NCBI RefSeq assembly: GCF_041886205.1
Contig: NZ_CP169029.1
Strand: one strand, 5' to 3'
DNA length: 64,000 nt
Origin: Escherichia coli
GTDB lineage: Bacteria; Pseudomonadota; Gammaproteobacteria; Enterobacterales; Enterobacteriaceae
The notes beneath the pieces are model-generated. The model was given only the letters and a program-made list of their open reading frames with translations, ran no database searches and had not been told where the DNA came from. Positions within the stretch are counted from its first letter, which is position 1, and every line of letters starts with the position of its first letter. Positions 52,164-57,100 of the stretch are shown piece by piece. The translations under genes and the position numbers were made by a program.

Positions 52164-53897
52164 TCATAGAATTAAGAGATCATCGTCCGGATCAAGAGAT
52201 GAGAGGAAATCGTCAGGTTCTTTGAGCATTGCCCGACCGATCGTCATAATCAGTGCAACCGCACCATCGATTTTGTTTTCCGCCTGCTCCTTGACGGGCT
52301 TCACTAAATCATCGTTACCTGGCATGTTTTTGCCGACCACATTACCGATACACCAGGTCATGATGGGATTGCCGTCATGATGAAAGCGTCCCGATTCAAT
52401 CGCTGCTTCCAGCTCTTTCATCGGATCGGACATATTGGCGAAGTTCTGGACGATAGTGACGGGATTCAGATCTTCATCAGCAAGGTCATGTGACAGCCCG
52501 GTCGCCCCGAAGGGGTCGATGGGTGACTCACTGACCGGGCTGATTTTGTTCGCCGCTTTGGCCTCCTCGAGGATGTAGCGATAATCCACCTCTGCACCAT
52601 CGGTAACGGTCAGGACGCCCATTTCCACCCATTTCTGAAAGCGTTCGGCTGTCCGTCTATCTTCATTTTTCTCGACGCTGTACACCGTGTCATACGGTAC
52701 CCAGAAGCGCGGGGCCACACTGTAGTAATGCGTTTTACCGTCAATCTCGCGGGTATAAAGTCGCGCCATGCTGTTCATATCCAGCTTACGCGCCAGGTCA
52801 AAGGCCAGAATGCACGGCTGCCCCTCGAACTGCTCAAGGGTCAGTGATTTATCCTCGCAGCTCTGCCAGCTCACCAGGTTGAAATACGCCGAACGCGCCG
52901 ACACCCAGATATTGAGGTGTTTTGTTTTAAAGACGTTTGCCAGACGGGCGTTATTTTTCGCACGCTGCTGCTGACTTAACAAAAATTCGCGATAAACCGA
53001 CACGCCAATATTTGGATTGGCTTTTTCCAGCACCTGCGGGTCGGTCCAGTCGTCACCTTCATCAACGGTATAGATGATCCCGAACAGTTCATCGTTAGGC
53101 ACCGAGCCGTTGAGCATCTCGATGACTTCCCGCCGCTTGTCGTAGCACGGCCCCTCAATGTTGTACCCGGCGGTGGTGATGGCCCACATCAGTGGCTGAC
53201 GTCGCGCCCCCATCCCTGTAAGCATTGTGGTATAAAGCGCATCGGTGGCGTGCTCGTGATATTCATCAACCACGGCACAGTGGGGTGATGAACCATCACC
53301 GGGATTGCCGATCAGCGGTTCAAACCGCGCGCCATCCTCCGGACGGTTCATGTTTGAGGCGTTAACCTCAATCCCGAACGCTTCCGTCAGCATGGGTGTG
53401 CGTTTACACATCAGTCGCGCCGGGCGAAAGACTTCCCACGCCTGTTTCTCTGTCGTGGCACCGGAATACACTTCCGCGCCAAACTCGTTATCACAGGCAA
53501 AACAATACAGGGCAACACCGGCAGAGATTGCTGATTTGCCGTTCTTACGGGGGATTTCGGTGTACACCTCCCGGAAGCGGCGCAACCGGGTGCCTTTATT
53601 GACCCAGCCAAACGCACAGCAGATCACAAATAGCTGCCACGGCTCCAGCGTGATGGGCATCCGTTTGAATGCCCACTCCCCCTTGGTGTGCGGCAACAGC
53701 TGAATAAATTTCGCAGCCCGTTCAGCCAGGTCCTTATCGAAGCGGTAACGAAACGACTTACTTTTTTCCGCCATCAGGTCATCAAGATGGCGCTGGCAGG
53801 CCTGAATCACAAACTGGCAGGCAACAATCTTTCCGCGCACGACATCCCGGGCATACTGATTGGCAGCATTTACGTTGGGGTAAGATTTCCGGCTCAT
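52164..53897 (-). CDS. Terminase large subunit
   Basis: 577 aa with N-terminal ATPase and C-terminal nuclease regions; coupled to small subunit. Confidence 0.85.
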
Positions 53898-54397
53898 GAC
53901 TCGATGATTTTCAGAAACGGGTTAGTGGCTTTCTTCTGCCCCGCCAGGCCAATCAGACGCTGGCGGCTGCTGGGGTCGAGTCCGAGCATTGCCCCCGTGC
54001 TGCTCATCTCGGACTCCTGTTCTTTCTTGGCGGTCAGCTCCGGGTTTTTGACCCTGCCGCCCATTGCACCGGTAATGGTGTTGCCCTGGCTGGCAATATT
54101 TTTCACGGCACGTCGCCAGAACTCATAGGCCACGCACCACCGCTCAAGCACCGCGAGGTCAGTCACGCACAGCAGGCCCTGACCGCAGAGTTCTTTGGTT
54201 GTCAGTTGCCACATGATCGTGGCGAGAGGGAGATCTTCTTCAGCGAACCATTCCGGTGGCTCAACACCTTTGATGGGCGTAAAAACAGGTTCATCTTTAT
54301 TCAGGGCTCGCTTGCCGGGGTTTCCGGCCAGCGCCTTGCGCGCCGTTGGCTTGGGGCGACGCCCGGAACGCCCCGCCGTTCCAGCCATATGCGGCAC
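53894..54397 (-). CDS. Terminase small subunit (P27-like)
   Basis: 167-aa basic ORF directly upstream of and overlapping large subunit. Confidence 0.7.
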
Positions 54398-54514: not shown

Positions 54515-54865
54515 TCACTTTAACCGTTCACGGGCCGTCTTCGCCTTATGGCAGGGCCAGCACAGACTCTGCAGATTACTGTCGGCATCAGTGCCGCCAT
54601 GCGCTTTAGGGATGATGTGGTCAACGGTTTTCGCCTCGCGCACCACACCAGCACGCAAACACAACTGACACAGGCCTTTGTCACGCTTCAGTACTCGCAC
54701 CCGGATACCGTCCCACTTCGAACCATAACCACGCTGATGGCGGGACTGGCCCGACTTGTATTGCTTCCAGCCCTCGCTTTTGTGGCTTTCGCAGTAGCCT
54801 GACGGGTCAGTCGTGGTATTGCGGCAGCCGCGAACACGGCAGGCTTTTGGGATTCGAGGAGGCAT
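54515..54865 (-). CDS. HNH endonuclease (packaging-associated)
   Basis: 116 aa with zinc-finger cysteines and HNH core (VDHIIPKAHGGTDADSNLQSLCWPCH); immediately upstream of terminase genes. Confidence 0.85.
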   Translation of the reverse strand: MPPRIPKACRVRGCRNTTTDPSGYCESHKSEGWKQYKSGQSRHQRGYGSKWDGIRVRVLKRDKGLCQLCLRAGVVREAKTVDHIIPKAHGGTDADSNLQSLCWPCHKAKTARERLK

Positions 54866-54891: not shown

Positions 54892-55164
54892 CTATTTGCC
54901 TGCTGCCAGCAAAGCGTTACGGCGCATCTCGATACTTCGAATTCCCGCTTTGTCAATATTGCATTGTCCCAACGCTGACAACAGACTCACATTCAACTCC
55001 AGACTGGCACCATACGTCAGCGGATTGGGTATAAACGGTACAGGAGTATCAGAAGTCAGGCTGGCTGGCAGTGGTGCCACCGGAACGCTCACGTAAACCG
55101 TTCGCGAATTTCCGCAACCGGTCAGCAGCGGCAGCAGGCACAGGACGTGAAGCACAATCATCAT
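54892..55164 (-). CDS. Outer-membrane spanin lipoprotein (Rz1-like), embedded out of frame in Rz
   Basis: Frame starting MMIVLHVLCLLPLLTGC with lipobox LTGC; Pro-rich mature part; overlaps i-spanin gene. Confidence 0.6.
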   Translation of the reverse strand: MMIVLHVLCLLPLLTGCGNSRTVYVSVPVAPLPASLTSDTPVPFIPNPLTYGASLELNVSLLSALGQCNIDKAGIRSIEMRRNALLAAGK

Positions 55165-55441
55165 CCGCAACAGCCACTTTGATATCTTCCTGGGTTCTCT
55201 GTGACTCCAGTGCGATCTGCTGTTTTGCATGTTGATTCGCCTCCTGAATGATGTTCGTTATTGCCATAGTACGCAGAACATTCGCGGTGATAGCCTCAGT
55301 AGAATCAGCTCGCTGTTCCGCAGCGTCAGCACGCTTCTGTTCCTTCAGAAACTTTCCGTGGTAGTGATTAGCTGACCAGACAAGACCACCAGCAATACAA
55401 GCAATAAACGTTAAAATGAGCGCCCAATAACTCATCTTCAT
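55049..55441 (-). CDS. Inner-membrane spanin (Rz-like)
   Basis: 130 aa, N-terminal TM helix then coiled-coil periplasmic domain; follows endolysin. Confidence 0.7.
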   Translation of the reverse strand: MKMSYWALILTFIACIAGGLVWSANHYHGKFLKEQKRADAAEQRADSTEAITANVLRTMAITNIIQEANQHAKQQIALESQRTQEDIKVAVADDDCASRPVPAAAADRLRKFANGLRERSGGTTASQPDF

Positions 55442-56052
55442 ACCAGCAGCGCCGCCCGCGCCTTGTTGTATCGAACCTTACGATCCTCAATACCGTTCAG
55501 ACCGCCGTTAATGATGCGCGTAACACGATTAATATCAGCACCGTAGACCATGCAGCCTTTAGAGGTGTAGAACCATGCAGCTGAGCGCGCGGCCTGTAGC
55601 TCCTGCTCCAGTTGTTCAGGTGAGGTCACCAGATCTAACTTCAGCGCCGCGCCACAGATGCGATAATTATGAAGGCCAGTGATTTGAATTAATCCTCTAC
55701 CACGATATTTCCAGCCATCACCGGGTGCTTTGTTACCCAGTCGGTTGCTATACACCAGATTGGCAATAGCATCCTGACGAGCTGCATGTCCGGATGTTCT
55801 GCCAAGGGCATCAGCCTGCTGCTGTGTGATCCTCTTTCCGAACGTCGCCACCAGCGCAGATGGTGTGTAGTTAAAATTTTCAACTACGGCGCTAAACCCC
55901 ATCGACTCATGGCCTACCTGAGCGATAAACATTGCCTGATCCGCTGGTGCTGTAATGCCGAATTCCTTCATCGCCGCATCAATGTGCGGAAACCAGCGCG
56001 CAGCCAGCCCGGCGCTAATACCAGCCGCCTTTTGAAATAATTGTTGGTTCAT
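55438..56052 (-). CDS. Endolysin (GH19 chitinase-like lysozyme)
   Basis: 204 aa; motifs FIAQVGHESMGF and KYRGRGLIQITG; lysis cassette context. Confidence 0.75.
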   Translation of the reverse strand: MNQQLFQKAAGISAGLAARWFPHIDAAMKEFGITAPADQAMFIAQVGHESMGFSAVVENFNYTPSALVATFGKRITQQQADALGRTSGHAARQDAIANLVYSNRLGNKAPGDGWKYRGRGLIQITGLHNYRICGAALKLDLVTSPEQLEQELQAARSAAWFYTSKGCMVYGADINRVTRIINGGLNGIEDRKVRYNKARAALLV

Positions 56053-56333
56053 TAGTGCCTCAGATGATCAACCAGACGTGCAACGTTGCCTCTGACGGCC
56101 ACCAGCACGGAAAGAAAAATAGTGTTCGCCACGATAATGGGCCATGAGGAATGAGGATAAATCCCACAGAGATAGGCCAACGGAACAGCACTGTATGTAA
56201 CAGTAATCAGCCAGGCTAAACGTGAAACCCAAGGACGATGCCGCGAATCACCACGACGATAAAACATCAGAGTAATAACAACACAAGCACATAACAGCGC
56301 ATTTATAGTTGCTGTCGGGTCATTTAGCTCCAC
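56052..56333 (-). CDS. Small membrane protein (holin/antiholin candidate)
   Basis: 93 aa, 2-3 predicted TM helices, between holin-like gene and endolysin. Confidence 0.5.
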   Translation of the reverse strand: MELNDPTATINALLCACVVITLMFYRRGDSRHRPWVSRLAWLITVTYSAVPLAYLCGIYPHSSWPIIVANTIFLSVLVAVRGNVARLVDHLRH

Positions 56334-56706
56334 CTGAACCTCCCCGGCGCGTTATGAGCGCCACCAGCGAGCCGATATCCTGATTATTCAGGAACGTCAG
56401 GATCTTAACGGCTAAAGCAGAGACGATTACGGCACCAATAGCATCCAGAGGTTTATCACTGTATCCGGTCAAGTTCGCCAGCTTGGAGCCAACCAACCCA
56501 GAGCAAAGAATCCCGGCAATATATGACACGATAAAATATGCCAGTCGGCGCGATGCACTCAGATCTGCTGCTGTTGCTATGTAGAATACAGCCCCTGCAA
56601 ATGCGCCAAATACAACGCCGTAATCAGTTCCGGTCAGCAGTCCATAAACACTGGCACCCGTCAGGGCACCACCAGCCAGCCCAGTACCGGAAATCGGATC
56701 GGACAT
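56320..56706 (-). CDS. Holin-like membrane protein
   Basis: 128 aa Gly/Ala-rich with 3 hydrophobic helices; first gene of lysis cassette. Confidence 0.55.
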   Translation of the reverse strand: MSDPISGTGLAGGALTGASVYGLLTGTDYGVVFGAFAGAVFYIATAADLSASRRLAYFIVSYIAGILCSGLVGSKLANLTGYSDKPLDAIGAVIVSALAVKILTFLNNQDIGSLVALITRRGGSGGAK

Positions 56707-57061: not shown

Positions 57062-57100
57062 CAAAAACCCCGCCGAAGCGAGGTTTGTTATGATTTCGTT
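57062..57100 (-). terminator. Intrinsic terminator downstream of Q (tR'-like)
   Basis: Reverse strand reads cctcgc-ttcg-gcgggg followed by tttttgcttttc; analogous to lambda tR' read through by Q. Confidence 0.6.

Follow-up and report, generated by a model that had tools for sequence, protein, structure and literature searches.

A probable overlapped, rather than embedded, two-component spanin pair in the lysis cassette of an SfV-like Escherichia coli prophage

How are the two genes that close the lysis cassette of this Escherichia coli prophage arranged, and to which class of spanins do their products belong? The window, a stretch of DNA of 64,000 nucleotides that was analysed at its full length, carries on its minus strand an Rz-like reading frame and a lipoprotein frame that share part of their DNA. 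A first-pass annotation had described them as a two-component spanin pair with the classic embedded Rz/Rz1 architecture, the lipoprotein frame lying out of frame inside the 3' half of the Rz-like gene. The identification as a spanin pair is borne out by our analysis and the embedded architecture is not. Judged from the sequence and its relatives, the region very probably comprises the last two lysis-cassette genes of an SfV-like E. coli prophage, which encode a two-component spanin in the 'overlapped' arrangement of P2 LysB/LysC, Mu and SfV. The criteria by which we recognise a two-component spanin are those of Summer et al. 2007 and Kongari et al. 2018.

Both ORFs are present in the ORF listing and in the sequence itself, on the minus strand and with the outer coordinates originally proposed for the pair. 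Their layout is as follows:

55049..55441, minus strand, Rz-like i-spanin gene, a 130-aa ORF that reads 55441→55049
54892..55230, minus strand, o-spanin gene (LysC/Rz1-like lipoprotein precursor), a 112-aa ORF in the +1 frame relative to Rz
55049..55230, minus strand, dual-coding overlap of 182 nt, which encodes Rz residues 71-130 and o-spanin residues 1-61
54892..55048, minus strand, the 157 nt of the o-spanin gene past the Rz stop, which make the pair 'overlapped', not 'embedded'

The start coordinates place the lipoprotein frame in +1 relative to Rz ((55441-55230) mod 3 = 1), so that the two are indeed out of frame with each other. The further statement that the lipoprotein frame sits inside the 3' half of Rz is correct for its start codon and for its LTGC motif, but the frame itself continues beyond the end of Rz: the Rz stop codon is the TGA at 55051-55049, and the o-spanin stop codon follows at 54894-54892, 157 nt further downstream. 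Of the o-spanin, the shared DNA encodes residues 1-61 only, namely the signal peptide and the beginning of the linker. Residues 62-112, which include the confidently predicted C-terminal helix and an invariant cysteine, Cys90, lie wholly outside Rz, and the helix is encoded on unique DNA; about 23 of the 74 mature o-spanin codons overlap Rz, and two thirds of the mature protein are encoded outside it. At the other end of the pair the Rz ATG overlaps the endolysin stop codon (GTATGAAG).

The Rz-like ORF opens with the hydrophobic segment MKMSYWALILTFIACIAGGLVWSA, and its product has the following features:

55370..55426, minus strand, i-spanin N-terminal transmembrane segment, residues 6-24, WALILTFIACIAGGLVWSA; the Kyte-Doolittle 19-residue maximum is 1.97, K2 precedes the segment, and it is helical in the AlphaFold2 (AF2) model
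55136..55162, minus strand, i-spanin linker, residues 94-102, DDCASRPVP, which separates the two helices of the periplasmic part, with the Cys96 codon at 55156-55154

A single N-terminal transmembrane domain (TMD), as is expected of a spanin, is thus found in the i-spanin, with K2 on the cytoplasmic side and a polar remainder in which 28% of the residues are charged. The AF2 model, built with 47 homologues, predicts a helix over residues 3-93, a break at 94-102 and a second helix at 103-119, and hence the two helices and linker that characterise the periplasmic part of such proteins, at modest confidence (mean pLDDT 67.7). Cys96 is invariant in the 47 homologues, Mu gp23 included. For the i-spanin of SfV a helix content of 59% and a coiled coil at residues 30-61 have been published (supplement, PMC6139136). 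We assign the i-spanin to its family because of its match to PHROG 214 'Rz-like spanin' (E=1.2e-44) and its 64% identity to SfV Rz over 130/130 aa, and not because of Pfam PF10828 (DUF2570), against which it scores 16.2 bits (E=0.01), below the gathering threshold of 26.6 bits. SfV Rz scores 28.0 against the same profile, close homologues carry precomputed matches to it, and NCBI names this i-spanin family DUF2570. A possible lipobox within the Rz TMD (FIAC, Cys15) was considered and rejected: Cys15 occurs in one subclade only, SfV has VVTVIGS, and more hydrophobic TMD residues come after it.

The o-spanin ORF begins with MQNSRSHWSHREPRKISKWLLRMMIVLHVLCLLPLLTGC, followed by GNSRT…, and the features of its product are these:

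55117..55230, minus strand, signal peptide of a lipoprotein, predicted to span 38 residues: a long n-region of basic character (residues 1-22, net charge +5), then the h-region MMIVLHVLCLLPLL
55114..55125, minus strand, lipobox L-T-G-C, with the Cys39 codon at 55116-55114; Cys39 is predicted to carry the lipid and to begin the mature protein, in which Gly is at +2
54898..55014, minus strand, C-terminal helix of the mature o-spanin, residues 73-111, an AF2 block of pLDDT 86-95, with the Cys90 codon at 54963-54961

The LTGC lipobox that had been noticed from the letters alone therefore exists, at 55125-55114 and within Rz. The stretch VLCLLPLLTGC fits the core pattern of PROSITE PS51257. The PROSITE lipoprotein rule places the lipobox Cys within positions 15-35; counted from M1 the Cys is at position 39, past the 35-residue limit of the rule. 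Among 119 relatives the signal peptidase II signal L[ST]GC is kept in 119/119, and the mature +2 residue, Gly here, is G, N, S or E and never D, the pattern expected for sorting to the outer membrane. Of the 412 open segments of 60 aa or more in the window, 5 match a loose lipobox rule, the Rz TMD (FIAC) and terminase among them. The AF2 model (48 homologues) consists of a signal helix (14-37), an extended Pro-containing linker (38-72) and the helix at 73-111. G38, C39, P65, L87 and C90 are invariant in the 48 homologues, which include Mu and P2 LysC, and the mature o-spanin has exactly one non-lipobox Cys in 119/119 relatives. Each partner accordingly has a periplasmic cysteine of the kind used by spanins for homotypic disulfides (C96 in the i-spanin, C90 in the o-spanin), as predicted from sequence. 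A sequence search of the PDB returned no solved relative; the best match (E=0.12), the lipoprotein YifL/LptM, covered the region of the signal and linker.

Evidence that both frames are coding comes from their relatives. Two scans of viral contigs supplied the 160 related viral loci of the sample, to which four annotated records of phages and E. coli were added; the diversity analysis was made on 119 distinct DNAs with 57% to 99% identity to the window. In the part that belongs to Rz only (nt 1-193 from the Rz start), diversity across the 119 DNAs peaks at Rz codon position 3, with values of 0.51 (nt 1-114) and 0.47 (nt 115-193). From nt 212, which is the ATG at 55230, the diversity at Rz position 3 is down to 0.107, overall diversity falls and the third-position excess is gone. 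Within the overlap the nucleotide diversity is 0.056 in a closer set of 48 DNAs and 0.13-0.21 in the 119, and past the Rz stop it follows the codon positions of the o-spanin, with 0.206, 0.177 and 0.491 at positions 1, 2 and 3 (119 DNAs). The classes of substitution switch as well: changes that are synonymous in Rz and alter Rz1 stand to the reverse class as 53:30 in nt 115-211 and as 10:20 in nt 215-277 (Fisher p=0.005). The 48 closer DNAs repeat the pattern of the 119, with a diversity of 0.138 just upstream of M1 and of 0.017 between M1 and M23. On these comparative grounds both frames are genuine coding sequence, because homology, the codon-position pattern of diversity and the switch in substitution class all point to it.

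The same data bear on the position at which the o-spanin begins, for which two sites have to be compared with the ATG at 55230:

55240..55245, minus strand, Shine-Dalgarno (SD) sequence AGGAGG, which precedes the o-spanin ATG by 9 nt and falls within the Rz codons Q-E-A
55164-55159, minus strand, internal ATG-ATG (M23/M24), within the part that encodes the signal peptide

The ATG at 55230 and the SD core GAGG are each present in 119/119 distinct related DNAs. None of the 119 has a stop codon between M1 and the Cys, and 90/119 have an in-frame stop 4-11 codons upstream of M1; both the level of diversity and its codon-phase pattern change exactly at this ATG. Position 55230 is most likely the start of the o-spanin, as far as sequence can indicate, because the SD, the conserved ATG, the distribution of stops and the switch in constraint all coincide there. 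One alternative keeps the same spanin pair and starts the o-spanin at the internal M23/M24 (55164 or 55161), which would give a 90-aa product, or lets both starts be used. Several observations speak for it. The signal peptide would then be of normal length and the Cys would be residue 17 or 16; 119/119 DNAs keep the M24 ATG, which means that Asp94 of the overlapping Rz frame is always encoded by GAT and never by GAC; Kongari et al. give 93 aa for the SfIV o-spanin, against an annotated ORF of 342 nt, which implies a start downstream of the first ATG (PMC6139136); and some NCBI records (P0019, P0099, P0109, P0119) hold 90-aa versions, some of them named 'peptidase'. However, an n-region that begins at M23/M24 has no basic residue and no convincing SD precedes it, whereas AGGAGG, with its invariant GAGG core, stands 9 nt before the ATG at 55230. 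The collapse of diversity and the flip in substitution class also fall at 55230 and not at 55164, the upstream stops in 90/119 DNAs and their absence from M1 to the Cys mark out the longer frame, and the invariance of M24 may just reflect the need for a hydrophobic residue there. We consider an internal start, whether exclusive or additional, improbable, and retain 55230.

With the start at 55230 the o-spanin has 22 residues ahead of its hydrophobic core, an unusually long and strongly conserved N-terminal extension. By analogy with dual-start holins, this extension and the invariant M24 ATG might together form a dual-start or export-rate device that tunes how much mature o-spanin reaches the outer membrane; we offer this as a speculation to which we give little credence. 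Alternatively the signal peptide may simply be long, its sequence being kept fixed by the Rz frame that overlaps it.

Are the two genes part of a cassette that could still serve a phage? The pair directly follows the other lysis genes, and its neighbours were identified by Pfam and PHROG matches and from the RefSeq annotation of an identical locus:

55438..56706, minus strand, upstream lysis genes: Phage_holin_8 at 56706-56320, Phage_holin_3_7 at 56333-56052 and the GH19 endolysin at 56052-55438

A search against NCBIfam gave nothing useful for any of the lysis genes and returned spurious sub-threshold histidine-kinase matches on the Rz helix. The order on the minus strand is antiterminator, terminator-like hairpin, Phage_holin_8, Phage_holin_3_7, GH19 endolysin, Rz/Rz1, HNH endonuclease, and small and large terminase, so that Rz/Rz1 stand after two holins and an endolysin, in the place within a lysis cassette that is expected of spanin genes. 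This position, the i-spanin with its N-terminal TMD and helical periplasmic domain, the outer-membrane-type lipoprotein in the +1 frame, and clear homology to the Rz/Rz1 of SfV, SfIV and Mu as well as to the Pfam family of P2 LysC together uphold the original description of a two-component spanin pair.

The window holds an E. coli prophage whose 2.4-kb lysis region recurs at 99.9% identity in E. coli PigCaeca_1 as well as in other genomes. PigCaeca_1 shares the 550-nt spanin region at 100% identity, identical copies occur in several E. coli genomes, and matches to it are found in 689/5,426 complete E. coli genomes. It could be argued that the genes are intact but reside in a decayed, non-inducible prophage and have no current function in the cell. 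Defective alleles do exist in the same type of cassette, where, for example, a 22-nt deletion in at least 9 contigs has joined Rz to the C-terminus of the o-spanin and cut the lipoprotein short. In the window, however, both ORFs keep their full length and run collinear with those of SfV, the ORFs around them (holin, endolysin, HNH, terminase, head and tail) are open, and the lysis and spanin regions recur at the identities just given in several genomes; decay to this extent is therefore an unlikely description of the locus. Programmed frameshifting was also entertained as a source of the Rz::Rz1 fusions in databases and was discarded: the junctions differ, being single-base losses in a CCC run and in a GG run as well as the 22-nt deletion, and from their sequences the fusions look like independent mutations or sequencing errors.

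To which architectural class does the pair belong? In the 'overlapped' class the gene for the o-spanin runs on past the stop of the i-spanin gene (Kongari et al. 2018; PMC6139136), and this is what the locus displays, with a +1 frame, a 182-nt overlap and 157 nt past the stop as in the P2 LysB/LysC type; the o-spanin gene is not contained entirely within the i-spanin gene, as the embedded class demands. The closest known system is Rz/Rz1 of Shigella phage SfV (SfVp51/SfVp52), with SfIV also close. The two SfV genes have lengths of 393 and 339 nt, equal to those here, and they share the +1 frame, the 182-nt overlap, the 157 nt past the Rz stop and an HNH endonuclease gene directly after the pair. 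The supplement of the spanin census (PMC6139136) enters SfV as 'ovl', giving 182 nt for the overlap and 393 nt for the i-spanin; the census places SfIV and SfV together in an overlapped i-spanin family and both of them in the 'Mu' o-spanin family (PMC6139136). Kongari et al. assign a protein to a family if 40% or more of its periplasmic domain is at least 40% identical to family members; the i-spanin is 64% identical to that of SfV, and the o-spanin 88% to that of SfV and 43% to that of Mu (residues 19-107), values that are whole-protein BLASTP identities and not products of the BLASTCLUST procedure of those authors. The N-terminal ~70 residues of Rz, which comprise the TMD and the first part of the first helix, have diverged from SfV far more than the overlapped C-terminal part. 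The holin and endolysin of SfV are a lambda-like S/R pair, in contrast to Phage_holin_8, Phage_holin_3_7 and GH19 here; the upstream lysis genes thus belong to other families than those of SfV, and the cassette is therefore mosaic.

Mu has the same +1 overlapped layout in gp23 and its overlapped o-spanin frame, which extends 202 nt beyond gp23 and has a K-rich n-region (MMQKKK) before the h-region. The o-spanin is 43% identical to this unannotated Mu +1 frame (E=4e-22), with the motifs LLTGCGNS and ALGQCN-DKA in common, and for the i-spanin and Mu gp23 the identity is 33% (E=1e-11), with C(A/S)(S/T)RPVPA-AADRLR in common. The RefSeq record of Mu carries no o-spanin annotation.

P2 LysB/LysC is the prototype of the overlapped class: lysC starts inside lysB in the +1 frame, with a 146-nt overlap and 145 nt past the stop (also PMC3091744). 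The o-spanin matches Pfam PF23793 (Rz1-like lysis system protein LysC) with 60.2 bits against a threshold of 27 (E=1.8e-16), its residues 35-101 aligning to positions 2-66 of the 69 in the profile; the scores of Mu and of P2 LysC itself are 52.7 and 64.9 bits. Pairwise comparison with P2 LysC gives 29% identity at a marginal E=0.14, and BLASTP of the i-spanin against P2 LysB detects no similarity, so that the link to P2 is made because of the Pfam profile and the architecture and not through pairwise similarity. The surroundings differ, in that P2 lysC ends within the tail gene R while the o-spanin frame here ends 26 nt before the HNH gene. The P2-like LysC proteins of KS14 and KL3 have mature lengths of 72-74 aa and 9.5-9.7% Pro (PMC3091744), and the mature o-spanin resembles them with 74 aa and 7 Pro (9.5%).

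Lambda Rz/Rz1 is the prototype of the embedded class, with Rz1 entirely inside Rz, and no sequence relationship between it and the pair here is detectable. What the two have in common is a functional class: an inner-membrane protein with a TMD and a coiled coil, an outer-membrane lipoprotein in the +1 frame, periplasmic cysteines and the last place in the lysis cassette. A lambda-type embedded pair with the lipoprotein gene fully nested in Rz, which is how the first-pass annotation saw the locus, agrees with the start codon, the signal peptide and the lipobox, all of which fall within Rz, in its 3' half, and share with lambda the +1 frame. It is contradicted by the 157 nt past the Rz stop and by residues 62-112, which Rz does not cover; no +1-frame stop codon occurs before 55049 that could close the frame within Rz. 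The overlapped +1 geometry is moreover found in 160/160 related loci in which both frames could be located, the lipoprotein frame ending 91-166 nt past the Rz stop, and the published class of the SfV homologue is 'ovl'. Searches against the lambda-type Rz and Rz1 Pfam families gave no match (E≤10 for the i-spanin and E≤0.01 for the o-spanin); among the PHROGs the best matches are 214 for the i-spanin and 456 for the o-spanin (E=1.8e-28), and PHROG 13 gives a weak match (E=1e-4) over the TMD region only. The mature lipoprotein is of the P2 LysC type, being longer and less Pro-rich than lambda Rz1 and having a long C-terminal helix; for a lambda-like Rz1, 46 mature residues and 26% Pro were reported (PMC3091744). 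An embedded pair is therefore very improbable, and the overlapped reading is the one that we adopt.

An open +1 frame is by itself no significant evidence for a gene, as 53% of 20,000 synonymous recodings of Rz leave it open across the overlap, but the notion that Rz alone is a gene and the +1 frame is open by chance is extremely improbable, given the matches to Pfam LysC and PHROG 456, the third-position excess past the Rz stop (0.491 vs 0.206 and 0.177), the lipobox, ATG and SD kept in 119/119 DNAs at identities as low as 57%, and the loss of the Rz third-position excess exactly from the ATG at 55230.

How, then, would an overlapped pair of this kind act? By analogy, the mechanism is most likely the same as that of lambda Rz/Rz1. 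Following the model for lambda and other spanins, the o-spanin precursor would be lipidated at Cys39 and then cleaved by signal peptidase II, and the Lol system would sort the lipoprotein to the inner leaflet of the outer membrane, a destination predicted because the +2 residue is Gly and not Asp. The i-spanin would be anchored in the inner membrane. The two proteins, each presumably a disulfide-linked homodimer, would bind to one another through their periplasmic domains and form a complex that bridges the periplasm. Once the endolysin has removed the murein, the inner and outer membranes would fuse, as in the lambda work summarised in PMC6139136, and the last barrier to virion release would thereby be removed.

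The pair is already known: it falls in a catalogued spanin family, its SfV homologue is annotated as Rz/Rz1, the same geometry appears in the 2018 census, and the identical protein is named LysC in RefSeq. It carries little weight as a discovery and its practical worth lies in annotation, in which the architecture should be recorded as overlapped, not embedded, and the o-spanin start is best set at 55230. The o-spanin is identical to WP_077249172.1 of E. coli RefSeq, which is named 'Rz1-like lysis system protein LysC'. RefSeq records of the identical sequence either omit the intact i-spanin or flag it as a truncated pseudogene, an example of the known bias of gene callers against overlapping phage genes. 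The annotated lengths of the o-spanin disagree among records as well, with 112 aa in SfV, 93 aa in SfIV and 90 aa in the 'peptidase' entries.

Compared with phage SfV (L002), the window has a mosaic lysis cassette (55049-56706). DNA identity to SfV is ~90% in the HNH gene, in Rz1 and in the 3' portion of Rz; the holins and endolysin of SfV belong to other families than those found here. For many relatives, the stretch homologous to the window at the DNA level starts only at Rz nucleotide ~194-199, slightly upstream of the o-spanin start. The i-spanin ORF itself is intact in the window and collinear with SfV Rz (130 aa). The genes and elements surrounding the spanin pair are as follows.

57065-57086, minus strand: strong terminator-like hairpin with a GC-rich 9-bp stem and a T-run
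56052-56706: tandem holin-family genes Phage_holin_8 (128 aa) and Phage_holin_3_7 (93 aa), overlapping by 14 nt
54515-54865: HNH endonuclease gene, starting 26 nt past the o-spanin stop
53894-54397: P27-family small terminase gene, directly downstream of the HNH gene

The two holin-family genes may constitute a holin/antiholin pair or two holins. The hairpin separates the antiterminator gene (57946-57194) from the holin genes, which is where a late-operon terminator subject to readthrough by the antiterminator is expected. At the opposite end of the cassette, the spanin-HNH junction is the same in SfV and SfIV as in the window.

A natural allele of the spanin pair carries a 22-nt deletion spanning the Rz stop codon (L087 1501-2025, and also L088-L090; equivalent to window ~55032-55053). 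The deletion joins the entire i-spanin to the C-terminal ~45 aa of the o-spanin, resulting in a 174-aa fusion (P0123), and cuts the lipoprotein to 69 aa. It occurs on at least nine contigs, where the cassette is again of the holin/holin/GH19 type; the four examples given stem from four different sequencing runs. This is probably a defective spanin allele. The relatives that carry it differ from the window in the interval separating the spanin genes from the HNH gene, where they harbour an additional gene:

L087 2118-2438: extra gene of 106 aa with a weak GrlR-like Pfam match

Because the window has only 26 nt at that place, the gene looks like a moron-type insertion.

Further Rz::Rz1 fusions are present in the databases (P0016, P0025, P0018, P0128 and P0136), all of them 174-182 aa in length and combining the i-spanin family PF10828 with the o-spanin family PF23793. 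These arose from frameshifts at differing sites, two of which are short CCC or GG runs; the sites in P0016 and P0025 are equivalent to window ~55185-55195. The existence of such fusion proteins explains why the lipoprotein frame of the window matches the C-terminal part of the 'Rz-like spanin' profile PHROG 214, its residues 60-102 aligning with profile positions 133-175 of 176 (E=2e-4).

The i-spanin (window 55049-55441) is poorly handled by RefSeq/PGAP in records of identical sequence (compare L001 1993-2542 and L086 970-1242). The annotation of NZ_CP039298 leaves it without any CDS, and that of NZ_CM173464 marks it as a DUF2570 pseudogene, 'incomplete; missing C-terminus'. In the RefSeq record of phage Mu (NC_000929, region 11091-11567, corresponding to L085 2092-2568), gp23 is named 'Rz-like spanin' and the o-spanin frame that overlaps it is left without a CDS, although this frame is clearly there, with an LLTGC lipobox and a PF23793 match of 52.7 bits.
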